Positions 28,048 to 60,628 of a stretch of 64,000 nt of DNA are shown here, in pieces. Under the pieces are notes generated by a model, which was given only the letters and a program-made list of their open reading frames with translations, had not been told where the DNA came from and ran no database searches. The DNA is from Lachnospiraceae bacterium (lineage in GTDB: Bacteria; Bacillota; Clostridia; Lachnospirales; Lachnospiraceae), in NCBI GenBank assembly GCA_045657625.1, contig JAZOTM010000003.1, positions 5,574 through 69,573 on the forward strand, given 5' to 3'. The stretch's first letter is position 1; every line of letters starts with the position of its first letter. Made by a program: the position numbers and the translations under genes.

Positions 28048-28168
28048 CAAATATGTTGTATGAATTTGTCAGAAAAAATTTTTATATAAGCAGAATAGAC
28101 AAATAATTCTTCAAGATATATAATTTTATTAGAATTATGTCTGAAAATCAGAAGAGGCAGAGGTAACT

Positions 28169-29287: not shown

Positions 29288-29325
29288 AATACTGGAATCA
29301 TAATTAGTTAGCAGGGAGAAGGCTT

Positions 29326-43290: not shown

Positions 43291-43334
43291 AAAAAAAAGG
43301 CTTTTCTTCCGAATTGGAAGAAAAGCCTTTTTTT
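43291..43334. terminator. Bidirectional terminator between convergent genes
   Basis: AAGGCTTTTCTTCC-GAATT-GGAAGAAAAGCCTT, flanked by A8 and T6. Confidence 0.85.
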
Positions 43335-44985
43335 ATACCGGATGTAGTGCTTTTAAGCGCTTTTTGTCTTCGTACATTTGTTGGTCGGCACGGTCTCTGG
43401 TGTCTTCTAAATTGCGGTCGGTATTGGGATCGAAAATCGCGTAACCGGCGGCAATTTGAATGGGAAAAGCGCCGGCAATTAAACCGGCTTCTTCTTCCCT
43501 TAGGTGAAGTTCGTAAAGATAAACCGGAAGATTGACTTCATCTGCATGGGGGATGAGTACACAAAATTCATCGCCGCCAATGCGGTAAACTTCTCCAATG
43601 GGGGAGAAAAGTTGTTTGATAATCATGGCAGCTTTGGTTAAGTAATGATCACCGGAACTGTGTCCGTGGGAATCATTGACTTCCTTTAGGTAATTCAAAT
43701 CAAAGGACACGATGCCATAATTTTTCTTTTCTATGATGTTACTCATTCTCTGTTCATAAGCGTTGCGGTTATTGAGACCGGTCAAAATATCTTTGATTGC
43801 TAACTCTTTGTAGATCTCCAGTCGTCTTGCTTCAAATTGTAAGTCCATGTTGTCCATGGAAACCCCGTACCAAAGGAACGCACAGTAAACTAAAAAGCAA
43901 GTAACCGGAAGTACCATCAAATGTGAAAAACGGAAGAAGTAGAACACGATGGTAACACTTAAACCAAAGGCCAAGGAGAAGAGCCCGTAGGCATTCATAT
44001 AAACACGGCGGTCGGGCTTTCTGGTAGTGAGTCGTTTGATGGTGACGTAAATCAGATAAATAACTTCAATCACCATTAAGATAGCCGGAATAAATGCGGT
44101 TTCTCGGTAACAAGCAAGTCCTGTGATTTGTAAGAACAGGGATAGTAAAATATTGAACTGACAAATCATGCAAAGCACATTGCAAAATTTTTTTTCACGA
44201 ACCATAAAGTAATTTCTTACAAAGAGAATAAATGGTACCGGGAGTAAGGATAAAATGACGTAACTTCCAAAGTAAATAAAAATCGGATTGTCAATCACAA
44301 TGAGGAAGAAGTCGCTTTTGAATATGGTCCAAAGCCCCAAGATGGAACTAAAGATTCCGAAGGACAACATATAACTGTTGTTTCTGCTGTGTTTTGAGAA
44401 GAAACTCCAGTGCATAATAAGGTAAAAGCCGATGACAAAGATGATAAAACTTAAGGTGATTTCCGGCAAAGATTTCAAAATAATGTAACGATAAATGCTG
44501 ACACCGCTACCGTAGAGGAAGGAGACATCCAACATTTTCAAACTGGGGAAAATGCGTTTCACTCGGATTTCCAGGGTAGAGCAGGTGTTGGAAGGTGTGT
44601 AAATATTCCAAACGTTTCCGGTGGTTCCGCCAAAGATGGAATTGGCTTCCCGCAGGGAATACACCAAGGTACCGTCTTCAAAAATGTCGACGGTTTGATG
44701 CTTGGTGTAGAAGACAAAGGTATGATTGTCTAGTCTGTATTTGCTGGTAGATTGTTTTTCTTCATTGAATTTTTCGTTCGTAGAAAGATTTTCCATGTCG
44801 AACGTGTAGGTATAGACATCGGTTTCATAGGATGCAGTGTTTGGTTCCACAAAAGAAAAATCGTTGTTTCCAAAACGAGAAAGATAAGAACTTTGCACAT
44901 AAGAAATCACAACAATCAGGGTGCAGATTGCTACTAAAAAGGCATACATGATGTTGATTTTTTTTGGCAAAGAATTTTGAAACAT
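43333..44985 (-). CDS. Membrane-bound sensor diguanylate cyclase (GGDEF)
   Basis: N-terminal periplasmic-like domain plus about 7 TM. C-terminal GLNNRNAY...YRIGGDEFCVLI. Confidence 0.85.
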   Translation of the reverse strand: MFQNSLPKKINIMYAFLVAICTLIVVISYVQSSYLSRFGNNDFSFVEPNTASYETDVYTYTFDMENLSTNEKFNEEKQSTSKYRLDNHTFVFYTKHQTVDIFEDGTLVYSLREANSIFGGTTGNVWNIYTPSNTCSTLEIRVKRIFPSLKMLDVSFLYGSGVSIYRYIILKSLPEITLSFIIFVIGFYLIMHWSFFSKHSRNNSYMLSFGIFSSILGLWTIFKSDFFLIVIDNPIFIYFGSYVILSLLPVPFILFVRNYFMVREKKFCNVLCMICQFNILLSLFLQITGLACYRETAFIPAILMVIEVIYLIYVTIKRLTTRKPDRRVYMNAYGLFSLAFGLSVTIVFYFFRFSHLMVLPVTCFLVYCAFLWYGVSMDNMDLQFEARRLEIYKELAIKDILTGLNNRNAYEQRMSNIIEKKNYGIVSFDLNYLKEVNDSHGHSSGDHYLTKAAMIIKQLFSPIGEVYRIGGDEFCVLIPHADEVNLPVYLYELHLREEEAGLIAGAFPIQIAAGYAIFDPNTDRNLEDTRDRADQQMYEDKKRLKALHPV

Positions 44986-45181: not shown

Positions 45182-47833
45182 ATGCAGGATTATTTAGGGA
45201 GAGTAGATGTTTCAATGGATGATTATAGTCAGGCATTATTAGACAGTAATGTCATGCAGGAATTACAGGATCGTTTTTGTAGAGCGCAAAACGTCTACGC
45301 AGTATGTTTCAGTCGCACCCAGGGACTTGTGACAAAGGCATACGGGAGCAAAGAAGAACATTCCTATCTTTATGAGCGAATCGATATGGGGATTTATATG
45401 GATTTAATGAATCGGCTCATAAGCTCGGATTTGGAGAGCGTGGTGGAAGCGGATGTGGCAGATCCGCATTTGAAGTGTTGTGGTGTGGCAGTCCGCATAG
45501 AGGATTCCATTGCTGCGATTTGGGTTGTCATGGGGGTGATAGCCGATGAAGCAGACGAGGAAATTCCGGATTACATAGCAGTAACTTCAGAAGAGCGTTT
45601 TTATCATTGCTTGGAGTTCTTGGAGAGTTTATCGAAACAGTTTTTGCAGTCTAAGTTAAAAGAACTGTTTATCGAAGAAAAGTATCAGCGGACAAAGGAA
45701 GCACAGGAAGAAGTAGAGCTACAGCTGAAGCGAAATGAGGCAGTGACCAGCATTGTGCAGCAGTTGGAAAGTGACGAAGAATTTTCTGTGATTGTGAAGG
45801 ATATCTTACAGGAGGTTTGTACCTATCTGGATATCAGTAGTGCTTCTTTATTGCGTTATGAAAAAGACAATGCATATTTGGATGTCATTTGTGAATATGT
45901 TTCAAAATCAGGAGTATCTTACAAGGATCGGGGACAGCATGTGCCAAGGGAAAAACTACCCTTTGCAACAGGAAAACCCTATATTATTTCCGCCGGATCC
46001 ATGAAGCCGGTGGAATTCGAGACTTTTTTCCAAAAAGAGGCGATTCTTGCAGGCGTGAGTCTTCCGATAGAAATCAACGGAAAAGTCAGCATGTATGTTT
46101 GCTTCGTGGAAAATACCGTGGATCGTACCTGGGAAAATGCGGATTTGAAGTTTTTGAATGATGTAAAACAGATCATTCAGAGTATTTTATCCAAGAGAAT
46201 TGCAAAGAATTCATTGGCTAGTTCTTATGCGTCCTTGGAGGCTATTTTGGAAAATGTGGGTTGTGGTATTTATGTGACCGATCGCTTTAGCGGCAAGATT
46301 TTATTCCGCAATCAGACTTTTCGGGATATGTTCCAGAATTCCGGTGAAGATGTGCGGATTCAGGACATTATCGGAGAAGTATCTGAAACAGAGCAGGAGT
46401 TCTCGGAAATCTTTATGGATGCAGAGGACGGCTGGTATGATGTACGGCATATTCAGATTCACTGGGTAGATGGTAGAGAAGTCGATTTGTATACGATTTA
46501 CGATATCACTGCCAAGAAAAAGAGTCAGCAGGAGATTGAACGTCAGGCCAATAACGATTATTTGACCGGACTTTACAATCGTCGTCGTTGCGAAGAAGAT
46601 TTGGCAAAATATATTGCGCAGTGCAAGGAGTTCCGCGGAAATGGAGCCCTGTTGTATATGGATTTGGATGATTTTAAGCATATCAATGATGGCTTAGGAC
46701 ATCAGTACGGAGATGTATTGCTTCGTTCGATTTCTCATTGTCTGCAAAATATTAACGGTATTGAAAATACCTGCTATCGTATGGGCGGCGATGAATTTAC
46801 GGTTATTTTGCCTTACCATCAAGTGCATCTGCTGGATCAGGTGTTGGATGAAATTCGTGGTATTTTTGCAAAGCCATGGTATTTGAAAGATCGGGATTCT
46901 TATTGTTCCATCAGTATCGGTGTTGTGCGGTTTCCGGAGAGCGGAGATGATGTGCAGGATCTGATAAAAAAAGCAGATATTGCTTTGTACGAAGCAAAAC
47001 GCCAAGGAAAAAATACGGTGGTCATGTATGACGATAAAGTGGAGCTTACTTCTTTCCGACGCATCGATATGGAAAAGAATTTGCGTGAAGCGGTGATTAA
47101 TGGTTGCCGTGAATTTGAAGTTTATTACCAACCGGTAGTGAATATTCAGAGTCCCGGAAATCCTTGCCATGGAGCGGAGGCTTTGATTCGTTGGAATTCC
47201 GAGAATCTTGGTATGGTTAGTCCGGTGGATTTTATTCCGTTGGCAGAGTATTTGCGTTTGATCAATCCCATTGGGGACTTTATTTTGGAAGAGGCGTGCA
47301 AACGTTGCAAATATTGGAATGATTATGGACATCCGGAGTATCGCATCAATATTAATTTGTCTGTGGTACAGCTTTTGCAAAACGATATTGCAGAGCGAAT
47401 TCGAAATGTCATTCGCCGTACCCAGGTGAAACCTACCAATATTACTTTGGAGGTTACGGAAAGTCTGGCTATCAGTGATATGACACGTATGAAGAAGGTA
47501 TTGGCAGAGATCAAAAAAGTCGGTGTTTGGATTGCTTTGGATGATTTTGGAACCGGCTATTCTTCCTTGAATCATATTCGGGAATTGCCGATTGATATTA
47601 TTAAAATTGACCGCTGCTTTGTAGTGGATATTGGAAAAGATGAATATTCCGAAGTCTTCGTCAAAATGGTAACAGAACTTTCAGAGACCTTAGGCGTGCA
47701 GGTGTGCGTAGAAGGGGTGGAAGAAGATGTGCAGTTTGACAAAATTCGGGAAATGAACGTGCAGTTTATTCAGGGTTATTATTTTGATAAGCCGATGACT
47801 GCAGAAGCTTTTGAAGCGAAGTATTTGAAATAA
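45182..47833 (+). CDS. Multidomain GAF/PAS-GGDEF-EAL c-di-GMP protein
   Basis: YRMGGDEFTVIL, EALIRW and DDFGTGYSSL. Both catalytic motifs look intact. Confidence 0.9.
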   Translation: MQDYLGRVDVSMDDYSQALLDSNVMQELQDRFCRAQNVYAVCFSRTQGLVTKAYGSKEEHSYLYERIDMGIYMDLMNRLISSDLESVVEADVADPHLKCCGVAVRIEDSIAAIWVVMGVIADEADEEIPDYIAVTSEERFYHCLEFLESLSKQFLQSKLKELFIEEKYQRTKEAQEEVELQLKRNEAVTSIVQQLESDEEFSVIVKDILQEVCTYLDISSASLLRYEKDNAYLDVICEYVSKSGVSYKDRGQHVPREKLPFATGKPYIISAGSMKPVEFETFFQKEAILAGVSLPIEINGKVSMYVCFVENTVDRTWENADLKFLNDVKQIIQSILSKRIAKNSLASSYASLEAILENVGCGIYVTDRFSGKILFRNQTFRDMFQNSGEDVRIQDIIGEVSETEQEFSEIFMDAEDGWYDVRHIQIHWVDGREVDLYTIYDITAKKKSQQEIERQANNDYLTGLYNRRRCEEDLAKYIAQCKEFRGNGALLYMDLDDFKHINDGLGHQYGDVLLRSISHCLQNINGIENTCYRMGGDEFTVILPYHQVHLLDQVLDEIRGIFAKPWYLKDRDSYCSISIGVVRFPESGDDVQDLIKKADIALYEAKRQGKNTVVMYDDKVELTSFRRIDMEKNLREAVINGCREFEVYYQPVVNIQSPGNPCHGAEALIRWNSENLGMVSPVDFIPLAEYLRLINPIGDFILEEACKRCKYWNDYGHPEYRININLSVVQLLQNDIAERIRNVIRRTQVKPTNITLEVTESLAISDMTRMKKVLAEIKKVGVWIALDDFGTGYSSLNHIRELPIDIIKIDRCFVVDIGKDEYSEVFVKMVTELSETLGVQVCVEGVEEDVQFDKIREMNVQFIQGYYFDKPMTAEAFEAKYLK

Positions 47834-47846
47834 GGGAGATTTGAGA

Positions 47847-49142
47847 ATGAAAAAGCTTCGGGAAAAGAAAGGAAGAGATTTATACTGGGACAGATTAGAC
47901 AACACCGCAAATCTCTTCCCGGTGATTGCCGGGGAAACGCTGACAAACGTATATCGTATTTGTGTGACACTGACAGAAGATGTACAACCGAATTTACTAC
48001 AGGAAGCTCTTGATTTGGTATTACCCAAGTTCAAGGGCTTCAATTTGCGTCTACGTTTTGGTTTGTTTTGGTTTTACTTTGAAGAAAACGGAAAGGCTGC
48101 ACCGCGGGTGCACAAGGAAAATAATTATCCCTGTCGTTACATTCGAGAAAACCGTAACAACAACTATTTGTTCCGTGTGACTTATTACAAGAATCGCATT
48201 AATTTGGAGGTGTTCCATGCTTTGACAGATGGCATGGGCGGCTACAATTTTTTAACGGAATTGACTTATCAGTATTTGCGATTGTCTCATCCGAAATTAC
48301 GGAAAAAATATGGAGACGCCTTGTCTCCAAACACTTCCTTAAACCGTGAAGATAGCTTTTTGAAAAATTGTCCCAAGCGTAAAAAAGGAAAAGCCTATGG
48401 TTCCGGAAAGGCCTTTTTGATGAATGGAGAAAGACTTCCAAAAGGGGAGTTTGGCGTTATGCATGTGTATGTGCCTGTGGCAGAGATCAAAAAGACAGCC
48501 AAGAGTAAAGGCGCCAGCATCAATGACTTTTTGGTGGCGAATACGATTTATGCGATTTATATGGAGCAGTATCGAAATCGTAGAAAAAAAAGACCGATTC
48601 GAATTTCGGTACCTGTAAATTTACGCCCTTATTTTGAATCCATTACTACAAAAAACTTTTTTGTCATGGTTTCCATTGAGTTTGAACCTCAGAAAGAGGA
48701 ATACACGTTTGATGAGGTCTTGGAAATTACAAAAGAGGAAGTGCGAAAGAAAATTACGAAAGAGAATTTGGAAATCACGGTTTCCTACAATGTGGCAAAG
48801 GCGGAAAATATCATTGGAAAATTTGTTCCTTTGCCTTTGAAAAATATTGCTATGAATATTGTTTATCGTTTTATTGCAAGGGCCAATACCACTACGGTGA
48901 CCAACATTGGAGCTTTGAAGGTGGAAGAAGCATACGCACCGTACATTACGATGTTTCATGGTATTTTATCTGTATCCCAGGGGCAATTGTTGAAGGGAAC
49001 GATTTGCTCGTATGGAGATACCTTGGTATATACTTTTAGTACCCTGTATAAGGATACAGGAATAGAAAAGCGTTTTTGTAAAACCCTAGTGGAAGAGGGG
49101 ATTTCTGTAAGGGTGGAAAGCAATGGCGTTTTCCAATTGTAG
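47847..49142 (+). CDS. Condensation-domain-like acyltransferase (HxxxDG)
   Basis: FHALTDGMGG active-site motif. Starts 8-14 nt after the GGDEF-EAL stop (TTG 47841 or ATG 47847). Confidence 0.65.
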   Translation: MKKLREKKGRDLYWDRLDNTANLFPVIAGETLTNVYRICVTLTEDVQPNLLQEALDLVLPKFKGFNLRLRFGLFWFYFEENGKAAPRVHKENNYPCRYIRENRNNNYLFRVTYYKNRINLEVFHALTDGMGGYNFLTELTYQYLRLSHPKLRKKYGDALSPNTSLNREDSFLKNCPKRKKGKAYGSGKAFLMNGERLPKGEFGVMHVYVPVAEIKKTAKSKGASINDFLVANTIYAIYMEQYRNRRKKRPIRISVPVNLRPYFESITTKNFFVMVSIEFEPQKEEYTFDEVLEITKEEVRKKITKENLEITVSYNVAKAENIIGKFVPLPLKNIAMNIVYRFIARANTTTVTNIGALKVEEAYAPYITMFHGILSVSQGQLLKGTICSYGDTLVYTFSTLYKDTGIEKRFCKTLVEEGISVRVESNGVFQL

Positions 49143-49153
49143 AAATTGTATTT

Positions 49154-49187
49154 GTGTGACTGCGGTGTGACTAAGTCAACTTATACT
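49154..49187 (+). promoter_or_regulatory. Heptamer-repeat promoter P1
   Basis: GTGTGAC (49154), N4, GTGTGAC (49165), N10, TATACT (49182). No TTGACA-like -35. Confidence 0.65.
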
Positions 49188-49229: not shown

Positions 49230-49925
49230 GTGAAGAAAAAAACAGTGATACTTGGGGCGTTGCTTGTGGCTGTGGTGGCTGTTTCAGTAGGTGCTACTTT
49301 GGCGGTGACTGTTCTGGGTGGTACAGAGGATACCGCGCAAGAAGCGGATATTCAAATAAATGATATTGGTATCGTATTTACAAATACAGGTACGGAAACC
49401 GTTGCACTTGGAACCGGCAAAATTGTTCCGGGAGACGAAGTGGAAGTGCATCAGAGTGTTGCCAACCAAGTAGATGGAGACGATGGATACGATATTTATT
49501 TAAAAGTAGAGATTGATAAGTATTGGAAAGACGAAGATGGCGACTATATGGAATTCGATTCCGATGTGGTGGCAGATCGTTTGTTTGTGGAGGTAGACGG
49601 CGTATCTACTGAGATTCCTTATTTGGAAGAAGGAGAGCAGACACAGCTTGGCAACTGGATTTTGACTGAGTCAGATATGGATCATGTGGTGATGTTTTAT
49701 ATCTATCCATTGCAGCAAGGCGAAGAAACAACTGAATTTATTAGTTCTATCTTGTTTGACGGTTCCATAGATAACAGTTTTTCGGGAATGTCTTACAGCA
49801 TTGAAGCTACCGGTACAGCAGTGCAGGCTACCAATGGAGAGGCAGCTGTTGCAGCGGAACTTGGTATGTTCTTGACGTTTGACGAGGATGGAACCATTCT
49901 TTCTATCAGTGAAAGCAAAGAATAA
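49230..49925 (+). CDS. TasA/camelysin-like secreted protein (paralogue 1)
   Basis: Preferred start is GTG 49230 (SD GGGGAGGAG). Signal is KKKTVILGALLVAVVAVSVGATLAV. PGDEV strand and C-terminal IEATGTAVQATN. The track's upstream ATG 49146 would lie inside promoter P1. Confidence 0.65.
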   Translation: MKKKTVILGALLVAVVAVSVGATLAVTVLGGTEDTAQEADIQINDIGIVFTNTGTETVALGTGKIVPGDEVEVHQSVANQVDGDDGYDIYLKVEIDKYWKDEDGDYMEFDSDVVADRLFVEVDGVSTEIPYLEEGEQTQLGNWILTESDMDHVVMFYIYPLQQGEETTEFISSILFDGSIDNSFSGMSYSIEATGTAVQATNGEAAVAAELGMFLTFDEDGTILSISESKE

Positions 49926-49953
49926 TGGGACCGGAATGAGAGGAGAGACGAGG

Positions 49954-50748
49954 ATGAGAAAAAAACTTGGGACATTTTTGTTGACTTGTTGTATGACCAT
50001 ATCTTTGCCTGCTTTGGTAAATGGAGATACCGTAGATTTGACTGTGGTAAACAACGACACTTCCATCACTTTTGATGGAGACCTTTCGGATGCCTTTTCC
50101 GGTATTATGCCGGGCGGTACGGAAACAGTTGTGATTTCCTTGACCAACAACGGTAGTCAAACTGGCAATTATTATATGACACAGTCCACATTAGAGACAT
50201 TGGAAGAGACAAGTAGCGGCTCCGGTGGAGCTTACGCTTATACCGTGACGGTGGGATCCAGTGAAGAGGATGCCACGGTTCTTTTAGATACCAGCACCGG
50301 TGGATATACAGAGGCGGATACAGCAAGCGGCACAGACCTTAGCTCTATTACAGAATTAAATGGTTATACGTATTTTGCTACGTTGGCACCGGGGGAAAGT
50401 ACCAACGTATATATGACATTGACTTTGGATGGGGAAGGATTTGATAGTGTCACAGACAATGATTATTCCAATTCTTCTGCAGCCATTTCCGTAAATTTCC
50501 GTGTACAGTTTGAAAGTGCACAGGGCGGTACTACCACAGTGGTGACGCGTTACGTAGAACAGACAGGAGCGAATACCTTTGTAAATACAATTTTGGAAGA
50601 AGTAATTCCATTGGCCGGAGGAGTACAGACCGGAGATCCGTTCTCCATAGGGGTGTTGGCCCTTCTTCTCGGCGGAGGTATTTTCTTGATTGTAATAGCT
50701 GTGAAAAAGCAGATGGGAGAGCAGACACATGAAGAAAAAATTTCCTAA
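49954..50748 (+). CDS. Secreted protein with C-terminal VQTG sorting signal
   Basis: Preferred start is ATG 49954. Has a Sec signal ...LPALVNG. C-terminus is PLAGGVQTGD + hydrophobic helix + KKQ (VQTG codons 50623..50634). Confidence 0.7.
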   Translation: MRKKLGTFLLTCCMTISLPALVNGDTVDLTVVNNDTSITFDGDLSDAFSGIMPGGTETVVISLTNNGSQTGNYYMTQSTLETLEETSSGSGGAYAYTVTVGSSEEDATVLLDTSTGGYTEADTASGTDLSSITELNGYTYFATLAPGESTNVYMTLTLDGEGFDSVTDNDYSNSSAAISVNFRVQFESAQGGTTTVVTRYVEQTGANTFVNTILEEVIPLAGGVQTGDPFSIGVLALLLGGGIFLIVIAVKKQMGEQTHEEKIS

Positions 50749-51700
50749 AATCCTTTTGTTTGTCTTTTCATTAAGTATCTTTTTCTTTGTCCTGCCTATA
50801 AGCGTTTGGGCGGAGGAAACTTATACCATTACGTTTCGCGCAGGGAATGCCCGTACTTTTGATGTAGAGACACTTGCGTTCGAAGCTTATGAAAACGTGG
50901 AAGTCAATGAGAACTACGTCAAGATTCAAGTGGAGGTAAAAAAAGGTACTACCATCGGAGATGCGTTGGGACTCACCAATGAAGAACTAACAGCGGTAAT
51001 TCAAAGTGCACTTTCTGAGGATGGCAATGAGACCTATGCATTACGGACTTTAACGTGTGCAGATACAGAACTGATTAAGAACACCGATGTGGTATTGGAT
51101 TATAGTCGTATTGTAAATCCGGTTTCCTATTCCATTTCTTATGTGGATGCTACCGGGAATGCTATTTATCCATCAGTAATGGCCTATGGAAGTGAAGGCG
51201 AAGAGATTACAGCTTCCCCGCTCACGATTGCTTATTACGAGACAGAGGATACCGAAAAGACCATTGTATTGACAGCAGGAGAAACCAATGCCATTGTCTT
51301 TACTTATACATACACCGGAACGATTTCAAATACGGAGATTACCAATTTGATTCCGATTTATATTCCGGGGACGACGACTTATACTACGACGGTGAATACG
51401 GTTATACAGGATGCCGGGACGACGGTGACCAATGTGGCCGGTGGTGGAGCAGCGAATGCGCAAGCAGGAGCCGATGTAGATGATGAAGAAGAGGAAATTT
51501 CGGATGAAGAAACTCCGTTAGGCGGAGATGGTGAAGGACTTTTGAGTAATATTCTAGGCGAAGAAACACCTCTTGCAGCGCTGGTAGAAGGAAACAGTGT
51601 TTTGGTTCCGGCGGTGATAGGAGTGGTGGCAGCCTTGGTTGTGGTAGGCTTATTCTTTATTCAGAAGAAAAAAAGCAAATATGTTCAAGAATCTAAATAA
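50729..51700 (+). CDS. Surface protein with MucBP-like repeat and C-terminal TM anchor
   Basis: Signal peptide ...ISVWAEE. YSISYVDATGNAIY...IVFTYTY beta-rich module. T-rich linker. EETPLG / EETPLAA motifs, then TM + KKKSK. Confidence 0.65.
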   Translation: MKKKFPKILLFVFSLSIFFFVLPISVWAEETYTITFRAGNARTFDVETLAFEAYENVEVNENYVKIQVEVKKGTTIGDALGLTNEELTAVIQSALSEDGNETYALRTLTCADTELIKNTDVVLDYSRIVNPVSYSISYVDATGNAIYPSVMAYGSEGEEITASPLTIAYYETEDTEKTIVLTAGETNAIVFTYTYTGTISNTEITNLIPIYIPGTTTYTTTVNTVIQDAGTTVTNVAGGGAANAQAGADVDDEEEEISDEETPLGGDGEGLLSNILGEETPLAALVEGNSVLVPAVIGVVAALVVVGLFFIQKKKSKYVQESK

Positions 51701-51806
51701 TTTATTAAACATCCGTTTTTTACTGGAAAAACGGATGTTTTTTTGTTACAAAAAAACTAATTATGATATAGTAGTAGGGGTTGAGAGAGAGAAACGGGGA
51801 GCATAA

Positions 51807-53003
51807 ATGATTGTTCATACATTGGGAAAGTTTCAAATAATTGAAAAGGAAGCAGTTGTGACAGATGATAGTTTGAACTCGGCGATGATGATGAAACTGT
51901 TTGTTTTTTTGATTTTGCATCGAGATCAAGATGTCAGTGTGGAAGAATTAGCGGCTGCCTTATGGCCGGGGGACGAATCGGATAGTCCTGCGGGAGCTCT
52001 AAAAAATTTAACGTATCGTTTGCGAACGACGTTAAAAAAGAATTTTGGGGAATCCACTTATATTTTATCGAATCGAGGTTCTTATCGTTGGAATCCGGAG
52101 ATTCCGTTAACGGTGGATGTAGAAGAATTTGAGGAGTACTTGAAAGCGGCTCGGGAAAAAGAGGACATGGAGGAGATTATTCATGATTATGAAGAAGCCA
52201 TGTTGCTGTTTAAAGGAGACTTCATGAGCTGTATTCAAGATACACATTGGGCTGTTACTTTAAATACTTACTATCATGGACAGTTTTTACAATTGACCAA
52301 GGATTTAGAGGATTTATATCTCGAACAGGAAGATTATGTTCGTATGGAGCAGCTGGCTGGCGAGGCTCTCAAATTAGACAATCTGGATGAGGATTTGTAT
52401 TACTATTTAACCTTAGCCAAGATGAAACAAGGGCAATACCGTCAAGCACTGGAAGTTTATGAAACAGGATGTCGTATTCTGGAGGTAGAACTTGGAGTGA
52501 AACGTCCAAGACGATTGAATGAATTATACGGGGAGCTGCTAAAGGTGAATAAAACCAAGCAGGAAGAAGATATTATACAGGTGCAGACGGATATGCAGGA
52601 AGAAGAACCGGAAGGTGCTTTTTTTTGCGGATACCCGGTTTTTCGGGAAATATATCGATTGGAAGCTAGAAAAATATTACGCAGCGGGGAGTCAGAGCAT
52701 GTGTTGCTTTTGACGTTGCGTACTGTGGAAGCACCTACGGAAAAGGCGCGACAGTATCGTATAAAAAAAGGCATGGAACTTTTAAAAACGATTTTGGGAA
52801 CTAGTCTTCGTGTAGGGGATGTGGCTGCAGAATATAGCGATTCACAATATGTGATTTTGCTTCCGACCTGTACATATGAGGGGGGCATGATTGTGGCGGA
52901 TCGAATTATCTCACGTTTTCAAGAACTATCTAAGCAAAAGGAGAGCGTTCAGATTTTGCCGAGTTTAGTGGAAGTTGGGTTAGCGAAAGATATATTGGAA
53001 TAG
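51807..53003 (+). CDS. SARP/BTAD transcriptional activator fused to a degenerate GGDEF domain
   Basis: wHTH (VSVEELAAALWP, LTYRLRTTL), BTAD (AMLLFKGDF..., ALEVYETGCRILEVELGVKRPRRLNELYGELL). C-terminal RVGDVAAEYSDSQYVILLP aligns to RxxD-x5-GGDEF-VILLP. Confidence 0.8.
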   Translation: MIVHTLGKFQIIEKEAVVTDDSLNSAMMMKLFVFLILHRDQDVSVEELAAALWPGDESDSPAGALKNLTYRLRTTLKKNFGESTYILSNRGSYRWNPEIPLTVDVEEFEEYLKAAREKEDMEEIIHDYEEAMLLFKGDFMSCIQDTHWAVTLNTYYHGQFLQLTKDLEDLYLEQEDYVRMEQLAGEALKLDNLDEDLYYYLTLAKMKQGQYRQALEVYETGCRILEVELGVKRPRRLNELYGELLKVNKTKQEEDIIQVQTDMQEEEPEGAFFCGYPVFREIYRLEARKILRSGESEHVLLLTLRTVEAPTEKARQYRIKKGMELLKTILGTSLRVGDVAAEYSDSQYVILLPTCTYEGGMIVADRIISRFQELSKQKESVQILPSLVEVGLAKDILE

Positions 53004-53012
53004 TTAGGAGAC

Positions 53013-53441
53013 ATGCGTATGGAACAACAGTATCCCAAAAATGGATTTCGTGTATGTGTGGACAAAGTGGAGAACGACGTAGAGGGCAGAATTTATTCTC
53101 CGTTGTTTAAGGACAAAAAACCTTTTTCCTCTTTTGCAGAAGTGATTTTAGTTATGGATAATGTTTTCGATGCAACGGGATATCCTCATGCATTTCAAGA
53201 AAGTAGAAGTTTTGTGGAACGTCGGGGCACAAAGCCTTATCAACCGAAGAAACAGGAAGAGATTCCAAGACGCAGAGTAGAAGATCAAAAAGGAAAAGTG
53301 TATACGGTTGATATTGTAGTATTAGAACGGCGCGGCAGTAGTTGGCAAGGTGTTGCGAGAAATACGAATACCGGGGAAGAAAAAGAATTTCATAGTGAGA
53401 TGGAACTGTTTGAAATGGTTCGAAAAGAATTAGATCAGTAA
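53013..53441 (+). CDS. Small protein with two copies of a beta-beta-WQG-helix module
   Basis: Coupled 9 nt after the regulator. Its C-terminal half resembles the 59358..59585 product. Confidence 0.6.
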   Translation: MRMEQQYPKNGFRVCVDKVENDVEGRIYSPLFKDKKPFSSFAEVILVMDNVFDATGYPHAFQESRSFVERRGTKPYQPKKQEEIPRRRVEDQKGKVYTVDIVVLERRGSSWQGVARNTNTGEEKEFHSEMELFEMVRKELDQ

Positions 53442-53469
53442 AGGATGCTTTTTGGCATCCTTTTTTTTA
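53442..53469 (+). terminator. Intrinsic terminator
   Basis: AGGATGC-TTTTTG-GCATCCT followed by T8. Confidence 0.8.
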
Positions 53470-53478
53470 CTTTTTTCT

Positions 53479-53512
53479 GTGTGACCGACGTGTGACTTGA
53501 GATTGGTATAGT
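53479..53512 (+). promoter_or_regulatory. Heptamer-repeat promoter P2
   Basis: GTGTGAC (53479), N4, GTGTGAC (53490), N10, TATAGT (53507). Confidence 0.65.
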
Positions 53513-53589
53513 GGAACACATATAAAGGGAAGTTTGTGAAAGAGTTGTAATAACGAGTACCCTCGAGTTGGATGGAGGAAAAGAGGAAC

Positions 53590-56500
53590 ATGAGGAGAGT
53601 TTGGAAATCGATTCTGGCAACCGGTCTGATTGCAAGCATGAGCTTAGGCGAATTATCGACTGTTTACGCCTCAGAAACCCAAGAATCAATAGATACGAGC
53701 ATATATATGGAGTCTCAGGAAAGCACTGAGACTTCTTCTGATGTTGTAATAGATGCCGATACGACAGAAAGCACTGAGGTGGCTGCAGAGTCCACGGAAG
53801 GCACAAGCGAAGCAACCACAGCTACAACTAAAGCTACAGAGGATATTGCTGATGCCACAGAAGAGACATCTGCAGAAGTAAGGGAAGCAGAGTTGTCCTT
53901 TACTTCGAATGTTGCATCTGATGGCGTGACAGTTACTATTTCCGGTCCGGAAAGTGCATTTCCTTCTGCAGCACTTACGGTTGCTCTTGAAGTAAAAGAA
54001 GACGACGATTACATTGAAGAAGTTGTTTCTGCGTCAGATGTTTCCATTGCAGACTATGTGGCATATGACATTACACTACTGGTGGATGGCGTAGAAGTAG
54101 AACCCCTTGGAGAGGTGTCTGTTGTTTTTTCTGCAAATACATTAGGAGATGCTTCCGCAGAAGTTTATCATGTAAACGAAGAAACAAATACTTTGGATGC
54201 TGTGACAGAGACCAGCGTTACAGAAGATTCCATTTCCATGACTACGGATCATTTTTCTACCTATTTGGTTGGAGCTAGCGATACCAGATGGGGAGTACAA
54301 ACAACTTATGGGTATATTCAAACGGATAAAGATCCGAAGAATGGTGACTATAGTATTGTAGGAGAAATCTATTATAATGGGCAAAAAATAGATAGCTCTG
54401 ATGAAAAAATATTTAAATCCAAGACCCATAAATTTACTGCAGTTGCAGCGGAAGGTTATACTTTAGAAAAAGTAACCTATTATTATACTTATGCATATTA
54501 TTATGATAATTGGAGTAATGGTCAAACGGAAGAAAAGGTTTGGGACTGCTCCCAAAGTTTTACTATGGAGTATAAATATAATTCATGGGAATATGATGAG
54601 GGAAAAAATGACTATAGAGGATATTTTGTTTTACATGTCAGAGCTTATTTTGTAGATAAAACGAAAAGTGTAGATGTCGCTTTTACTACCAAAAACAGCA
54701 TGACAGAAAATGTGATTCAGGGGGTATCCTTTTCTTTAGCTGGAGAAGATGGCACTACATATACAGCAACCTCCGATTCTTCCGGAGATGTGTCATTTTC
54801 AGGTATTCCGCTAGGAACTTACACCTTAACAGAAAATCAGTTGATGGGTTATGAAACACCAAATCACACCTGGACAGTAACTGTGACAGAAACAGATACT
54901 TATACCATTGTCAGCGACAGTACGGAAGAAGCGGACTTGGAAGGCAGCTACAGTGAAGGTTATGTAGTATGGATTACACCACAGACAGAACCGGTGGTTT
55001 CTACAGATAAAGATACGGATCTTTATGATTGGGATAATCGTATTTATCAAGTGAAACTTGAAGGCAGTGCGATGCAGCAGGTGGTAGAGACAGCCTCAGA
55101 ACCGGTAAATGTGGTTCTGGTTTTGGATATGTCAGGGTCCATGCTATTTCCGAATGATTTAACAAATGAAACAACCATGTATATCTGGAACTTGGACACA
55201 TCTAAAACTTACTATTATATTGTTGAAGATGAGGCAGGTACTGTTTACACCGTACAGTATCGTACGGAAAGCGGTGTCAGTGGATGGTATTACAAGGATT
55301 CCTCTTATGTTTACGCAAATTCTGGGCAAAGTTGGACCTTGATTACTGACAAGTCTTCTGTACTAAATTACTACAAATCTTATAAGTTTTATACATCTCC
55401 TTCCGTGGGGGCCAGTATTCGTTTACAGGACACAAAGGCTGCAGCAGAATCTTTTATAAAAACTTTGGCAGAAGCAAATGAAAAGAATCAAGTAGCAATT
55501 GTAACTTTTGCAAAAAGTACTTCATCAAAAACAGAAATTGTTTGTGGTTTAACTGAATTAAGCGAGAGTAATGTGGAAACATTATTAAGTGAGATAGAGG
55601 GATTATCAACAGATGGCGGTACCAATCAGTATGCAGGACTTGAACTTGCAAATTCAATTTTAACATCGAACACGGAATCGGCAACTGATCATTCAGCAAT
55701 TGTATTGATTTCTGACGGTACCATTAATGAAAATGTAGAAGATTCCTATAAAGAAACACAAATCAGCACAGCACAGTCATTAGCAACGGTTTACACCGTT
55801 GGTATTGATATTAATGTGAATGCTACGGTGAAAGAAAAAGCGTCTACTTTGTTAAAAGAAATCGCTACGGATGAAAATCGATTCTATGAGGTTGGTTCAG
55901 ATGCTTTACATGCAATCTTATCAAGTATTGCAGTGGATATTCTTGGAAGTATTCCGTTGACAGCGACGGTTGTAGATTATATCGATGAACGGTTTCAGTT
56001 GGTGGATACTTCAGGAAATGCGCTGAGTGTAGGAGATACAATTTCAGCAAGACAAGTGACGGATGGTAAGATTGTTACCATTAACGGTACCATTGGTGAA
56101 GATGAAAATGGCGTATATGTAAAATGGGAAAGCGATGGCTTAAATGGTTTTATTGCTGAATTTTATGTGCAGGCCAAGGAGGATTTCCTAGGTGGCTATG
56201 TGGTAAAAACCAACGAGCTTGTTTCGAATATTACTGCCACATCTACAGAGGGAGAAATTGTCAGTGAAACTTTTCCGGTACCAACTGTAAATGTGAAACT
56301 CCTGGATTTGAGTATGGGGGATTTAAGTGAGACTCTTTTTCTGGGAGATGAGATTTCTTCCGGTGAGTTTGCAGAGGCATTGAATGAAACCATTCTTTTT
56401 AATGAAACAAATGGAAGCTTACAATTAACAGTGGCACAGATTGCCACCTTAATGGAAACAGGAACGGTGGAAGTTCCATATTCCTATGGTGACACCAATG

Positions 56501-57297
56501 ATGCGGTAGGTACTTTGACTTATACCTTGACTTGTTCCGGAGATACCGCTTCTTTGGAAAATCATACAGCCACAGTGGTTGGAGATAATGTGGAGACCTA
56601 TACCTTAAAGGTGAGTTATACACCATATACCTTAGAAGCAAGAAAAAATACGGCAACAACTGCAGGGTATGTGGTACCAAACAGCAGTTTTAATGGCCAC
56701 ACATTGAAAACTTCCAAAGAAACTTCAGGAAAGTATGTGATTTCTGTAGTAGCAGGAACCATTACCATTACAAAAACAATTTCCAAAGAGGACTATAAGG
56801 AAATTAAGGGAGATCCAATTTTTACCTTCCAAATCAAAAACACGACTACCGGAGATGTATATTATAAAACTCTTCGATTTACCAGTGGGGTGGAAGAGAC
56901 AAATGGAAATTATACTTTGTCTGTTGTGCTTACGGATATGAAGAGAGGCATCTATGAGGTTACGGAGCTTTCAACTATGCGGTTTACTTTAGATGAAGTG
57001 ACGATTTCTTCCAGCCAAAAGCAATTACCATCCAAGAGTATGGAAAACGGATATTGTTTTGCTATTGGATATTCTTCTACGGCTGCTGACACAGCATTAG
57101 AAACCCTTGCTTATAAGGATGCAACCATTTCTTTTGTAAACAGTATGGAAGTAGAAAACTATTTCTCAGATACGGACGTGGTGGTAAATACTTATCGGGT
57201 ATCTGATGGAAAAGTAATTTCCGGTGCAGAGGTACAGGATCGTTTAAATGGTTCTGCTAAGATTTACAGTGCTGCAGATTTCACAACAGTGGAGTAA
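53590..57297 (+). CDS. Large secreted vWA-domain / Cna-B-like adhesin without a recognisable anchor
   Basis: Signal peptide RRVWKSILATGLIASMSLG...VYASE. MIDAS DMSGS (55126..55140). Cna-B-like GTYTLTENQLMGYETPNHTWTVTVTE. The alternative start is ATG 53572. Confidence 0.8.
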   Translation: MRRVWKSILATGLIASMSLGELSTVYASETQESIDTSIYMESQESTETSSDVVIDADTTESTEVAAESTEGTSEATTATTKATEDIADATEETSAEVREAELSFTSNVASDGVTVTISGPESAFPSAALTVALEVKEDDDYIEEVVSASDVSIADYVAYDITLLVDGVEVEPLGEVSVVFSANTLGDASAEVYHVNEETNTLDAVTETSVTEDSISMTTDHFSTYLVGASDTRWGVQTTYGYIQTDKDPKNGDYSIVGEIYYNGQKIDSSDEKIFKSKTHKFTAVAAEGYTLEKVTYYYTYAYYYDNWSNGQTEEKVWDCSQSFTMEYKYNSWEYDEGKNDYRGYFVLHVRAYFVDKTKSVDVAFTTKNSMTENVIQGVSFSLAGEDGTTYTATSDSSGDVSFSGIPLGTYTLTENQLMGYETPNHTWTVTVTETDTYTIVSDSTEEADLEGSYSEGYVVWITPQTEPVVSTDKDTDLYDWDNRIYQVKLEGSAMQQVVETASEPVNVVLVLDMSGSMLFPNDLTNETTMYIWNLDTSKTYYYIVEDEAGTVYTVQYRTESGVSGWYYKDSSYVYANSGQSWTLITDKSSVLNYYKSYKFYTSPSVGASIRLQDTKAAAESFIKTLAEANEKNQVAIVTFAKSTSSKTEIVCGLTELSESNVETLLSEIEGLSTDGGTNQYAGLELANSILTSNTESATDHSAIVLISDGTINENVEDSYKETQISTAQSLATVYTVGIDINVNATVKEKASTLLKEIATDENRFYEVGSDALHAILSSIAVDILGSIPLTATVVDYIDERFQLVDTSGNALSVGDTISARQVTDGKIVTINGTIGEDENGVYVKWESDGLNGFIAEFYVQAKEDFLGGYVVKTNELVSNITATSTEGEIVSETFPVPTVNVKLLDLSMGDLSETLFLGDEISSGEFAEALNETILFNETNGSLQLTVAQIATLMETGTVEVPYSYGDTNDAVGTLTYTLTCSGDTASLENHTATVVGDNVETYTLKVSYTPYTLEARKNTATTAGYVVPNSSFNGHTLKTSKETSGKYVISVVAGTITITKTISKEDYKEIKGDPIFTFQIKNTTTGDVYYKTLRFTSGVEETNGNYTLSVVLTDMKRGIYEVTELSTMRFTLDEVTISSSQKQLPSKSMENGYCFAIGYSSTAADTALETLAYKDATISFVNSMEVENYFSDTDVVVNTYRVSDGKVISGAEVQDRLNGSAKIYSAADFTTVE

Positions 57298-57309
57298 GGG
57301 AGAGGGAAA

Positions 57310-57915
57310 ATGAAAATAAAGTGGAATAGAATAACAAAAAAAACAGCCCTCCTAATTGTAGCAGTGGTTGGAATATTGACAGTGGGAGTGGGAAGTACCT
57401 ATGCAGTGGTTTTATCCCATACTGCAAATACAGTGACGAATACTTTTACCATTGGCTCCGTGGAGACGGAGATTTATGAAGATACCTCTTCCTACGGGAC
57501 CAAAACCGTACAGGTGGTAAATACCGGAGATAGCCCCTGCTTGATTCGCGTGAGAGTCCATGTATCACCGGAAGATGCAGGCGTGACCATTACCGGGTGG
57601 GATACGGAACACTGGTCTACTTTACAGGAGGACGGTTACTATTATTATTTAGGAGTCCTGTCTGATAAAGGAGAAAATGCTACTTATTATGCTACACCGG
57701 CATTGTTTACCGGTTACACTGTAGCAGGTGTTGATGAAAATGGAAATGTGGAAGATGGAACGACTGTTCCGGATTTTTCCATTACGGTTTATCAGGAAAG
57801 CATTCAATACGAAGCGACCAATGAAGTCGGAGAAACCCTAACAGTCTATGATGAAAATGGGAACTTTTCTTTGGCGCAGGCCAAAGAGTTGTATGCCCTA
57901 TATGAAAGTAAGTAA
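57310..57915 (+). CDS. TasA/BsaA-like protein with SipW-type signal peptide (paralogue 2)
   Basis: ...LLIVAVVGILTVGVGSTYAVVLSHTANTVTNTFTIGSVETEIYED. C-terminal FSITVYQESIQYEA. Confidence 0.75.
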   Translation: MKIKWNRITKKTALLIVAVVGILTVGVGSTYAVVLSHTANTVTNTFTIGSVETEIYEDTSSYGTKTVQVVNTGDSPCLIRVRVHVSPEDAGVTITGWDTEHWSTLQEDGYYYYLGVLSDKGENATYYATPALFTGYTVAGVDENGNVEDGTTVPDFSITVYQESIQYEATNEVGETLTVYDENGNFSLAQAKELYALYESK

Positions 57916-57937
57916 GAGAAAGTGAAAAGGAAGTATT

Positions 57938-58450
57938 ATGATTCAGAAGATATGTAATGTGTTATCTACAATGATTTTAATAGTTTTATTACTGATGGCA
58001 GCGGCTTTGTTTGTGCCGAAACTTCTGGGGATGAACGAGTATGCAGTGTTGACCGGAAGTATGGAACCTACCATTTCCGTTGGATCTTTGGTGTATGACT
58101 GGGAATTCGAGGAGACTGAATTAGAAGTTGGTGATATTGTGACCTATCAGATTTCCGAAGGAACCTTGGTGACGCATCGAGTAGTGGAAATCAATGAAGA
58201 AGAGGCAACAGTTATTACCCAGGGAGATGCCAATAATGCAGAAGATGCAAATCCGGTACCTTTTGAAAATATTGTAGGGGTATGTACTTTTCATATACCG
58301 GCCTTGGGATATATTTCTATTTACATGAGAACCGGTTTGGGGATTGGCGTGATTTGCGGAATTGTTGTAGTGATTTTGTTATTAAACTATTTACCGGACC
58401 TGCTTTCAAAAGAGAGTAAGAAAGCTGTTACTGAAAAAGAAGAAATTTAG
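57938..58450 (+). CDS. sipW: Signal peptidase I, SipW (archaeal/ER) type
   Basis: N-terminal TM, LTGSMEPTISVGSLV (catalytic Ser), VTHRVVEI (His), C-terminal TM. Confidence 0.85.
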   Translation: MIQKICNVLSTMILIVLLLMAAALFVPKLLGMNEYAVLTGSMEPTISVGSLVYDWEFEETELEVGDIVTYQISEGTLVTHRVVEINEEEATVITQGDANNAEDANPVPFENIVGVCTFHIPALGYISIYMRTGLGIGVICGIVVVILLLNYLPDLLSKESKKAVTEKEEI

Positions 58451-58454: not shown

Positions 58455-58488
58455 ATATGACCATGGTGTGACCAAGGCTTGTTACAAT
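58455..58488 (+). promoter_or_regulatory. Heptamer-repeat promoter P3
   Basis: ATATGAC (58455), N4, GTGTGAC (58466), N10, TACAAT (58483). Confidence 0.55.
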
Positions 58489-58534: not shown

Positions 58535-59191
58535 ATGAAAAACAAGAAATTAGTTGTAACTTTAGGCGCTGTAGCATTGATCGCTGCAATTGGGGTAGGC
58601 AGTACTTTTGCATATTTGACAGCTACCACAGACACTGTTACCAATACTTTCACAATTGGTGAAGTGACTTTCACAACTCCGGATCCAGATCCAAATGATC
58701 CAGATTCCAGCATCAATTCCGGACTTGTAGAATCTGCTGTAGAAAGAGATGAGACCGGTGCATATGTAGATGCTGACGGAGATGATACATGGACTGTTAC
58801 CGGAAATGATTATACAGATGTATTACCTGGCGAAGTGATTTACAAAGATCCTACCGTTCTTGGTTTGACAGAGGATTCTGTTGATGCATATGTATTTGTT
58901 ACCGTTGCAGGCGAAGATGAAAGCCTTAGTGTAACAGAATATTCTAGCGAATGGACAGAATTAGGTAAAACTGACGATGGAAAGACTGTATTATATCGTG
59001 TATATGACAGTGCTGATGCAAAAAAAACTCCATCTACTATTTTCAGTTCTGTAACAGTTTCTACTGATGCAGATGAAGATACTGAGTTTACAGATATTGT
59101 AATTAATGCATATGCAATTCAGATGGCAGGCTTTGATTCACCAGAAGCTGCATTCGCTCAGTTTTCTGAACAGGCAGGAACATTAAAATAA
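58535..59191 (+). CDS. TasA/BsaA-like protein with SipW-type signal peptide (paralogue 3, own promoter)
   Basis: MKNKKLVVTLGAVALIAAIGVGSTFAYLTATTDTVTNTFTIGEV. C-terminal FTDIVINAYAIQMAGF. SD AAGGAGAG. Confidence 0.8.
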   Translation: MKNKKLVVTLGAVALIAAIGVGSTFAYLTATTDTVTNTFTIGEVTFTTPDPDPNDPDSSINSGLVESAVERDETGAYVDADGDDTWTVTGNDYTDVLPGEVIYKDPTVLGLTEDSVDAYVFVTVAGEDESLSVTEYSSEWTELGKTDDGKTVLYRVYDSADAKKTPSTIFSSVTVSTDADEDTEFTDIVINAYAIQMAGFDSPEAAFAQFSEQAGTLK

Positions 59192-59761: not shown

Positions 59762-59887
59762 CGTCATAGGAAGGTTTGACCTAAAAATACTTTTGGATTT
59801 TTTATGATATAAATTCTTAATTATGATAGACTAAGGGTAGTTGTTTTGACAGAAAAGGAAAGTTGGCAGGACATAAAGGACAGTGAC

Positions 59888-60628
59888 ATGAAGAAAAAGA
59901 AGGGAAATGCACTTTTATTTCTAGGAGTGCTATTGGTTTTGGCCGGATTAGGATATCTTGGTTATATGTTTTACAGTTATAAAAAAGCAGAGGATGCTTT
60001 CGCTGAAATTGCGGATACTTACGTAGAGCAGCAAGAAGAGGAGACACAGTGGTGGGAGACATTATCCATTGACTTTGAAGGCCTGAAAGAACGAAATCCC
60101 GACGTAATTGGATGGATTTATATGCCGGGAAATGAATACATCAATTATCCTATTTTACAAGGAGAAGATGATGATACCTATTTGCGAAGGGATTTGGATG
60201 GCAATGCTTCTTCCAGTGGATCGATTTTTATGGAGACATTAAATGCCAGTGATTTTTCAGATTATCATACCATTTTGTATGGGCATAATATGAGAAATAA
60301 ATCCATGTTTGGGTCATTGAAATTATTCAAAGACGAATCTTATTATGAAGAGCATAGTATCTTCTATATTTACACGGAGAATGCGGCGTATTGCTACACC
60401 ATCTTTTCTTATCATGATGTGCCGGAGGATAGTTCTATTTATACTATTGGGTTCCAACCGGGTGAAATCTATGAAGCCTTTTTGGAAGAACTGCTTCGTG
60501 CATCCTATTATGATTGTGGTGTGGAAGTAAACGAGGAAGATCAAGTGGTGACATTATCGACCTGTTCTGCTACCGGGTATCGTTTTGTGGTACATGGTGT
60601 TTTGACGGAAATCCATGTATATGAATAA
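59888..60628 (+). CDS. srtB: Class B sortase
   Basis: N-terminal TM, DVIGWIYMPGNEYINYPILQG, ILYGHNM (His), TLSTCS (Cys), RFVVHG (Arg). Preferred start is ATG 59888; the track ORF starts at TTG 59846. Confidence 0.85.
   Translation: MKKKKGNALLFLGVLLVLAGLGYLGYMFYSYKKAEDAFAEIADTYVEQQEEETQWWETLSIDFEGLKERNPDVIGWIYMPGNEYINYPILQGEDDDTYLRRDLDGNASSSGSIFMETLNASDFSDYHTILYGHNMRNKSMFGSLKLFKDESYYEEHSIFYIYTENAAYCYTIFSYHDVPEDSSIYTIGFQPGEIYEAFLEELLRASYYDCGVEVNEEDQVVTLSTCSATGYRFVVHGVLTEIHVYE

Follow-up and report, generated by a model that had tools for sequence, protein, structure and literature searches.

In a 64,000-nucleotide stretch of DNA from a Lachnospiraceae bacterium (GenBank assembly GCA_045657625.1, contig JAZOTM010000003.1, positions 5,574 to 69,573 of the forward strand; hereafter the window), we confirmed that one gene encodes a SARP-type transcriptional activator fused to a degenerate GGDEF domain with an RxxD motif. 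Both halves of this regulator are homologous to known domains, the GGDEF half has lost its catalytic residues, and four residues of the product-inhibition site (I-site) for cyclic di-GMP (c-di-GMP) are invariant in the family. A tandem GTGTGAC operator is conserved together with the target genes that it precedes, and the regulator gene itself is not autoregulated. This operator, a family-wide link to surface-fiber and adhesin genes, and a 142-residue partner protein, sm142, go beyond an earlier note made on this DNA (the original prediction). On balance, we favor the explanation that the protein is a cluster-situated SARP-type activator, in which c-di-GMP would bridge the I-sites, and that it controls matrix and adhesin genes via the tandem GTGTGAC box. 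The regulator gene and its parts are as follows.

51807-53003, + strand: regulator gene, an intact open reading frame of 398 residues with a winged helix, BTAD, linker and truncated degenerate GGDEF domain
51807-52106, + strand: OmpR-type winged-helix DNA-binding domain, about residues 1-100 (matched by Trans_reg_C and, in Foldseek, by AfsR/EmbR)
52107-52556, + strand: BTAD (TPR-like) domain, about residues 101-250 (PF03704; sequence and fold searches of the PDB return the SARP region of AfsR)
52557-52610, + strand: acidic linker, residues 251-268 (predicted local distance difference test score, pLDDT, below 50 at residues 251-258 and 264-268)
52611-53000, + strand: truncated GGDEF-like domain, residues 269-398, catalytically dead as judged from its residues; order of elements β, α1, β1, α2, β2, β3, α3, β4
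52680-52682, + strand: R292, aligned with WspR R198 (equivalent to PleD R313) by hmmsearch
52713-52715, + strand: T303, in place of the Mg-binding Asp (PleD D327) in the hhalign alignment
52809-52820, + strand: RVGD, the RxxD motif of the primary I-site, residues 335-338; R335 corresponds to PleD R359 and D338 to PleD D362 (hhalign)
52836-52850, + strand: SDSQY in place of GG(D/E)EF, residues 344-348, aligned with PleD GGEEF (hhalign)
52902-52904, + strand: R366, aligned with PleD R390, the third residue of the primary I-site (hhalign and HMMER)

The open reading frame starts with ATG and has a plausible ribosome-binding site, GGGGAG, in front of it. By sequence and modeled fold, its N-terminal part is a SARP. 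When Pfam was searched with the single protein, BTAD matched residues 103-245 over the whole profile (positions 1-146 of 146; E 1.3e-17), and Trans_reg_C reached E 6.6e-5 and 23.3 bits, under its cut-off of 26.2 bits. Both domains matched all 62 aligned homologs, with a best E value of 6.3e-9 for Trans_reg_C, and the NCBIfam models for the AfsR and BagI/FevR SARPs matched residues 29-253. Furthermore, the N-terminal 250 residues of the AlphaFold2 model, which has a mean pLDDT of 86, resembled AfsR (Foldseek E 1.7e-10; template modeling (TM) score 0.74-0.77, target-normalized) and EmbR. The OmpR-type winged helix plus BTAD that had been proposed for the first 250 or so residues is thus borne out by Pfam, by the family matches and by the AfsR/EmbR fold. 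All the features by which a SARP is recognized were found: the winged helix, the BTAD domain after it, and promoters with 11-bp tandem repeats, to which the regulator is assigned as binder from their co-occurrence. The acidic linker is the least conserved segment in a set of 82 species-level orthologs, which are 37-52% identical to the query.

The C-terminal domain is, from sequence and model, a catalytically dead GGDEF homolog. With the single protein, the Pfam GGDEF match stayed under threshold (E 0.014 and 15.6 bits, against a cut-off of 23.8), and several NCBIfam diguanylate-cyclase models weakly matched the same C-terminal stretch. The weak Pfam score would suit the explanation that the resemblance is due to chance or is a functionless, decaying remnant. 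Among the 62 aligned homologs, however, 56 gave a GGDEF match at E<=0.01 (best 2.1e-8), so that of the three Pfam domains named in the original prediction BTAD exceeds its cut-off alone, and Trans_reg_C and GGDEF fall below it singly and are supported family-wide. Of the PDB entries retrieved with a profile of the C-terminal 137 residues, nearly all were GGDEF diguanylate cyclases (best E 2.6e-5), and hhalign of the family profile against PleD gave E 2.4e-5. In the AlphaFold2 model, where the domain has a pLDDT of about 80-90, Foldseek likewise returned GGDEF domains, as predicted: SadC, DosC, WspR and a T. maritima diguanylate cyclase, the last with the highest target-normalized TM score (0.68). 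Profile and fold searches both giving GGDEF, about 1,220 family representatives at E<=1e-10, and a mean column conservation of 0.58 in this domain as against 0.62 in the DNA-binding domain effectively refute chance or decay, to which we assign almost no probability.

The family to which the regulator belongs consists of proteins of about 400 residues. A word-indexed search found 380 homologs, the best of them 43-53% identical, and the best species-level relative is 52% identical. The 1,220 or so representatives, which are clusters at 50% identity, came from an exhaustive search with the C-terminal profile, and in them the domain lies mostly at about residues 265-400. The named records belong to Lachnospiraceae or close relatives, with labels including Roseburia, Agathobacter and Lachnobacterium. 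In a second conservation set of 150 representatives clustered at 50% identity, nearly all are SARP fusions of about 400 residues or fragments of these, and the sole extra architecture is a C-terminal fusion to sm142. The source annotation of family members reads just 'BTAD domain-containing putative transcriptional regulator', and the architecture is visible in automatic Pfam annotation.

The AlphaFold2 model contains α1, β1, α2, β2, β3, α3 and β4, that is, the β-α-α-β-β-α-β core of a palm-type fold. The protein stops about 10 residues past β4, and α4 and β5, the part of a full GGDEF domain that carries the phosphate-binding Lys and Arg, are absent; the profile matches span only about residues 26-122 of the 167-residue cyclase domains. 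It had been proposed that the last 130 or so residues align to a GGDEF fold, and this stands as to homology and fold, but the domain is not a complete one. Catalytic residues are missing as well. SDSQY occupies exactly the predicted position in place of GG(D/E)EF, and the hhalign alignment agrees. The family consensus at this position is S-x-[ST]-Q-[YF] with Q347 invariant, and none of the 150 representatives has GG[DE]EF. Position 303 is Thr in 76 of the 82 orthologs, and where cyclases have the base-binding Asn and Asp, the regulator has just a plain helix. Neither the GG(D/E)EF motif nor the Mg-binding Asp is therefore present in the regulator, and SDSQY for GGEEF, T303 for D327 and the absence of GG[DE]EF from the 150 representatives indicate that the protein is not a cyclase.

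In contrast to the catalytic residues, the c-di-GMP I-site residues are selectively retained, as judged from alignment. The PleD and WspR reference sequences were verified against the PDB before they were aligned to the family profile. Five residues lie between the D of RVGD and the first residue of SDSQY, as in RAID-LPCRY-GGEEF of PleD. The coordinates, the PleD alignment and the family conservation all place RVGD at the canonical I-site, where it had been predicted. In WspR, R198 is the secondary I-site arginine contributed by the neighboring GGDEF domain, and its mutants R198A and R242A contain no nucleotide after purification (PMC2270323). R292, R335, D338 and R366 are invariant in the 82 orthologs and 97-100% conserved among the 150 representatives (R335 in 149/150, D338 in 150/150 and R366 in 145/148). 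In the latter set, conservation reaches 93% or more in only 11 of the 140 domain columns, and these four residues are among them, together with C274, F279, R288, L301, L334, Q347 and L352; the naive probability of this overlap is 2e-5. The regulator thus has the sequence features of a degenerate-GGDEF receptor, namely RxxD five residues upstream of the GGDEF equivalent and the further I-site arginines R366 and R292. The two intact GGDEF proteins of the window (RIGGDEF and RMGGDEF) have no RxxD. This indicates that RxxD is not a structural need of the fold in the host organism.

The same conservation data bear on the possibility that the domain reads another small-molecule signal, such as GTP, (p)ppGpp, a cyclic dinucleotide other than c-di-GMP, or a metabolite that binds the remodeled S-x-S-Q-Y hairpin. 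Q347 and S344 of this former active-site hairpin are invariant, and some degenerate GGDEF domains bind GTP (PdeA/CC3396) or ATP (YybT/GdpP), both of which count for such a ligand. However, the GTP- and Mg-binding residues are gone (T303 for Asp, a plain helix in the base-binding region, α4 missing), and the residues that were kept are those of the c-di-GMP I-site. We consider another ligand quite improbable.

The regulator's targets were approached through its putative operator. The operator pattern was searched, allowing 2 mismatches at most, in 79 loci that each encode a family member and come from different GTDB species. The window has three copies of GTGTGAC-N4-GTGTGAC, two of them perfect and the third with 2 mismatches; each lies in an intergenic region, on the + strand:

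49154-49187, + strand: predicted operator/promoter P1, GTGTGACtgcgGTGTGAC at 49154-49171, 10 nucleotides, then TATACT; upstream of the BsaA-like matrix operon (GTG start at 49231)
53479-53512, + strand: predicted operator/promoter P2, GTGTGACcgacGTGTGAC at 53479-53496, 10 nucleotides, then TATAGT; upstream of the VWA/SpaA adhesin operon
58455-58488, + strand: predicted operator/promoter P3, ATATGACcatgGTGTGAC at 58455-58472, 10 nucleotides, then TACAAT; upstream of a gene for a protein with a SipW-dependent signal peptide (58535)

Classic SARP boxes, such as those of ActII-ORF4, DnrI and AfsR, are tandem heptamer direct repeats with an 11-bp period that replace the -35 element. Across the 79 loci, 141 operator sites lie on the regulator's strand and 1 on the opposite strand, as compared with about 3 on the + strand per shuffle. 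At least one site was found in 66 of the 79 loci, a -10 box stands exactly 10 nucleotides downstream in 100 of the 141 sites, and the orthologous P1 position is kept in related loci. From the positions of the -10 boxes, we estimated 5' untranslated regions of about 35-70 nucleotides. No Rfam family, and hence no c-di-GMP riboswitch, reaches its gathering threshold anywhere in the window, and riboswitch control was rejected on this ground. The earlier statement that the 5' untranslated regions are short and contain no c-di-GMP riboswitch therefore agrees with both results.

Two other arrangements of the box were seen. Two complete units of GTGTGAC box and -10 element, about 80-100 nucleotides apart, occur in loci L026 (11707, 11791), L028 (9944, 10026) and L048 (9498, 9574), and in L075, L080 and L083 (around 16.8-16.95 kb), which points to tandem promoters under regulation or to regulated transcripts of very short length. 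Three heptamers at 11-bp spacing, with a degenerate third one (e.g., GGGTGAT), are found in L071 (2616-2644), L077 (3030-3058), L079 (999-1027), L036 (10947-10975) and L029 (9285-9313). These hint that more than two protomers could align.

The genes behind the boxes of the window, and the sortase gene beyond them, are as follows:

49231-51700, + strand: target operon 1; its three products, secreted or anchored in the membrane, are a BsaA-family SipW-dependent matrix protein, an unknown protein and a MucBP-like protein
53572-58450, + strand: target operon 2, encoding a 1241-residue SpaA/VWA adhesin, a 201-residue protein and a SipW-type signal peptidase
58535-59191, + strand: target gene 3, with a SipW-dependent-type signal peptide (TasA/camelysin-like); Peptidase_M73 is called on orthologs
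59846-60628: class B sortase gene, further downstream of target gene 3

Target operon 1 is kept upstream of the regulator in 44-54 of 84 related loci. Across loci, the boxes precede SipW/BsaA-like matrix genes, VWA/SpaA adhesin genes, pilins and sortases. Even in loci without tblastn homologs of the target genes, the regulator is followed by box-preceded surface genes; for example, a VWA/SpaA adhesin, an LPXTG pilin and a sortase lie behind a box in L023, and SipW and a sortase in L030. From this comparative evidence, the regulator probably switches on the adjoining surface-fiber and adhesin genes via the GTGTGAC box.

Two further genes flank this region. A DUF6320 protein is encoded directly 3' of the class B sortase gene (60646-61311, + strand; E 2.2e-45), and no homologs of it were found within the flanks of related loci. 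Between the GGDEF-EAL gene described below and the matrix operon is an open reading frame of 433 residues (47841-49142, + strand) with a weak match to wax-ester/diacylglycerol acyltransferases (E 2.3e-7, far under the cut-off) and no counterpart in any of the 84 related loci.

The regulator's own promoter differs from those of its targets, and the gene shares its operon with sm142:

51743-51772, + strand: promoter-like site of the regulator operon, TTGTTA, 18 nucleotides, TATAGT, with TG upstream of the latter (consensus scan)
53013-53441, + strand: sm142, a 142-residue partner protein, starting 10 nucleotides past the regulator stop codon and ahead of the operon terminator
53440-53463, + strand: intrinsic terminator-like hairpin closing the regulator-sm142 operon

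The promoter-like site is σ70-like, lies directly 3' of a terminator at 51707-51740 and contains no GTGTGAC box. Among the 79 related loci, a box within 300 nucleotides upstream of the regulator was found in only one, and autoregulation was rejected for this reason. The lack of autoregulation fits a constitutively made protein whose activity is set by a ligand, that is, control at the protein level.

sm142 adjoins the regulator in 38 of 84 loci and has the conserved motifs N-x-F-R-x-C-x-D, GYPQAFQ-x-x-RSF and SR-x-N-x-SWQG. It gave no sequence match in Pfam, NCBIfam or the PDB. Its AlphaFold2 model (pLDDT 73) shows two β-β-β-α units and a disordered linker, and a fold search against the PDB returned nothing significant (best Foldseek E 0.86). 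Identity as a PilZ-type receptor was considered and found no support in family, sequence or fold searches. In three representatives (P0203, P0214 and P0239), sm142 is fused C-terminal to the GGDEF-like domain; hhalign of the fusions gave probabilities of 99.3% (E 1.4e-20) and 98.8% (E 7.6e-17). Fusion in relatives indicates that sm142 is a functional partner of the regulator, and it is probably an accessory module of the sensor.

This adjacency in 38 of 84 loci and the fusion right after the GGDEF-like domain also speak for the main rival explanation. It holds that the C-terminal domain is a nucleotide-independent module for dimerization or for docking of a partner, be it sm142, BTAD or a diguanylate cyclase, and that its conserved Arg and Asp side chains make salt bridges between proteins. 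The regulator would still be a GTGTGAC-box activator, with another input or constitutively active. The surfaces of C274, F279, R288, S344 and Q347 are as invariant as the I-site, and c-di-GMP genes are not enriched near the regulator, both of which are consistent with docking. On the other hand, more than half of the loci have no sm142 and all four I-site residues are still kept there, the invariant residues match one-to-one the c-di-GMP-binding residues of PleD and WspR, and the window's own active cyclases do without RxxD. We therefore regard a docking module as rather unlikely.

Three genes for c-di-GMP enzymes lie in the window:

28169-29287: REC-HD-GYP
43333-44985, - strand: 7TMR-GGDEF, with RIGGDEF
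45182-47833, + strand: PAS-GGDEF-EAL, with RMGGDEF, EAL and DDFGTG

The PAS-GGDEF-EAL gene ends 7 nucleotides before the gene at 47841, just upstream of the matrix operon, and the two may be co-transcribed. These neighbors had been offered in support of c-di-GMP sensing. All three are real, but they lend it little weight: of 84 loci, only 9 have a GGDEF-EAL gene at a distance of up to 8 kb from the regulator, which we put at about chance by a rough, unmeasured estimate. Since c-di-GMP genes are not enriched family-wide, the three genes show only that the organism uses c-di-GMP, and they were set aside as uninformative about sensing. Elsewhere in the window, a PGA_cap capsule-synthesis gene is followed by the REC-HD-GYP gene and a FapA-family gene (26899-31506, + strand), a surface- or motility-linked c-di-GMP neighborhood. 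In the related locus L001, a REC-GGDEF-EAL-REC protein and an Hpt protein are encoded at 964-3891, about 1.4 kb upstream of the matrix operon.

The explanation that we favor can be set out as a mechanism. The co-occurrence of regulator and box in comparative genomics points to the regulator as the protein that binds the GTGTGAC operator. Two protomers would bind the direct repeat [G/A]TGTGAC-N4-[G/A]TGTGAC, with its 11-bp period, through their winged helices. The repeat takes the -35 location, 10 nucleotides upstream of the -10 element, and the bound protein would recruit RNA polymerase to target promoters that are otherwise presumably weak, like AfsR. The genes driven in this way would be those for BsaA/TasA-like matrix proteins, SipW and the VWA/SpaA adhesin, and possibly the class B sortase downstream. 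The C-terminal domain would be a cyclase palm that lost catalysis and its last third and kept the product-inhibition site, and its conserved residues suggest c-di-GMP as the ligand. An intercalated c-di-GMP dimer would be held between the two protomers, by R335, D338 and R366 on one side and R292 on the other, in the way known from inhibited PleD and WspR. Linkage of the protomers by c-di-GMP would make DNA binding or activation dependent on the c-di-GMP level, so that high c-di-GMP, which we infer to be the activating state, would yield more matrix and adhesin. c-di-GMP typically controls adhesins and matrix. As no riboswitch is found here, this makes a c-di-GMP-sensing regulator a good biological fit.

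Several points weigh against this mechanism. The domain is truncated, and the AlphaFold2 model says nothing on a ligand. S344 and Q347 of the former active-site hairpin and the C274/F279/R288 segment are conserved as strictly as the I-site, and this surface may be a site for a different ligand or for protein contact (sm142 or BTAD, for instance). A GGDEF dimer bridged through I-sites is two-fold symmetric, but direct-repeat DNA needs a head-to-tail pair, and the flexible linker would need to absorb the mismatch in symmetry. PelD was not retrieved when the PDB was searched with the C-terminal profile. Finally, the finding of a GGDEF-EAL gene near the regulator in so few loci gives no genomic association with c-di-GMP.

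The C-terminal domain is similar to PelD and PopA in its dead GG(D/E)EF motif, in the RxxD five residues upstream, in the Arg equivalent to PleD R390 and in the logic of the product-inhibition site. SgmT and CbrR are further degenerate-GGDEF receptors that use the I-site. These four receptors have no DNA-binding domain and act on polysaccharide synthesis, proteolysis targeting or kinase localization, and their GGDEF domain is full-length, whereas that of the regulator ends after β4. A 2025 review of c-di-GMP effectors puts degenerate-GGDEF receptors in one class and transcription-factor receptors in another, and leaves SARPs unmentioned (PMC12564702).

The N-terminal part, with its winged helix and BTAD and its heptamer direct-repeat operator of 11-bp period, resembles AfsR, ActII-ORF4, DnrI, RedD and EmbR of M. 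tuberculosis. Actinobacterial SARPs target antibiotic clusters, whereas the regulator described here belongs to a gut/rumen anaerobe of the Bacillota and is linked to surface fibers and adhesins. At the C-terminus there are NB-ARC/TPR modules in large SARPs, an FHA domain in EmbR and nothing in small SARPs. Unlike all of these, the regulator has a GGDEF relic as its putative C-terminal sensor. GSU1771 of Geobacter sulfurreducens is a non-actinobacterial SARP-family regulator of biofilm genes (PMC10599522). It comes from another phylum and has other targets, and neither title nor abstract of the paper mentions a GGDEF-like sensor.

The concept of a c-di-GMP-bound transcription factor for matrix, adhesin or motility genes is shared with FleQ, VpsT, BldD, MrkH, Clp, BrlR and LtmA. 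These proteins use AAA+, REC, PilZ, CRP-type or bespoke motifs; none was found with a GGDEF I-site, and none is a SARP. c-di-GMP is described as promoting oligomerization of VpsT and BldD (PMC3359988, PMC4151990, PMC3526308). With respect to targets, the closest likeness is to the sipW-bsaA operon of Clostridium perfringens, which has homologous target types: a SipW signal peptidase, a BsaA-family matrix protein and a sortase-anchored adhesin (PMC7395162). The C. perfringens and Clostridioides difficile systems are controlled by a two-component system or by riboswitches, whereas a protein activator with its own sensor domain is proposed here. In C. difficile, sortase substrates and pili are under c-di-GMP riboswitches.

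Our literature searches found no paper on a SARP-GGDEF protein, on a c-di-GMP-binding SARP or on the regulator's locus in Lachnospiraceae, and no transcription factor described as sensing c-di-GMP through a GGDEF I-site. The searches also turned up no characterized SARP with a GGDEF-type sensor, in line with the original prediction. What appears new, from the sequence evidence, is the union of a known receptor principle with a known activator family; phylum and targets are new too. We give an even chance to the stronger statement that this is the first example of a transcription factor with a recycled cyclase I-site as its c-di-GMP reader, and the first SARP under a nucleotide second messenger. 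If so, a c-di-GMP dimer would bridge the GGDEF relics and license binding to GTGTGAC, and the machinery of SipW/BsaA-type fiber, VWA adhesin and sortase would be switched on in Lachnospiraceae that are abundant in gut and rumen, with sm142, an orphan fold, as a further regulatory module.

To our knowledge, no c-di-GMP effector has been characterized in gut Lachnospiraceae, although their genomes encode enzymes for its synthesis and breakdown. With about 1,220 clusters at 50% identity, the family described here is a widespread candidate effector whose operator is defined and whose putative regulon covers adhesion and matrix genes. If the mechanism is true, an I-site relic fused to a DNA-binding activator would be a new receptor-output pairing for c-di-GMP biology, and the SARP family would be seen to work outside Actinobacteria and secondary metabolism and to take a second messenger as its input. 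The GTGTGAC box is a simple handle for annotating the regulon in metagenomes, and the decision of major butyrate-producing commensals between attachment and matrix production becomes directly testable.

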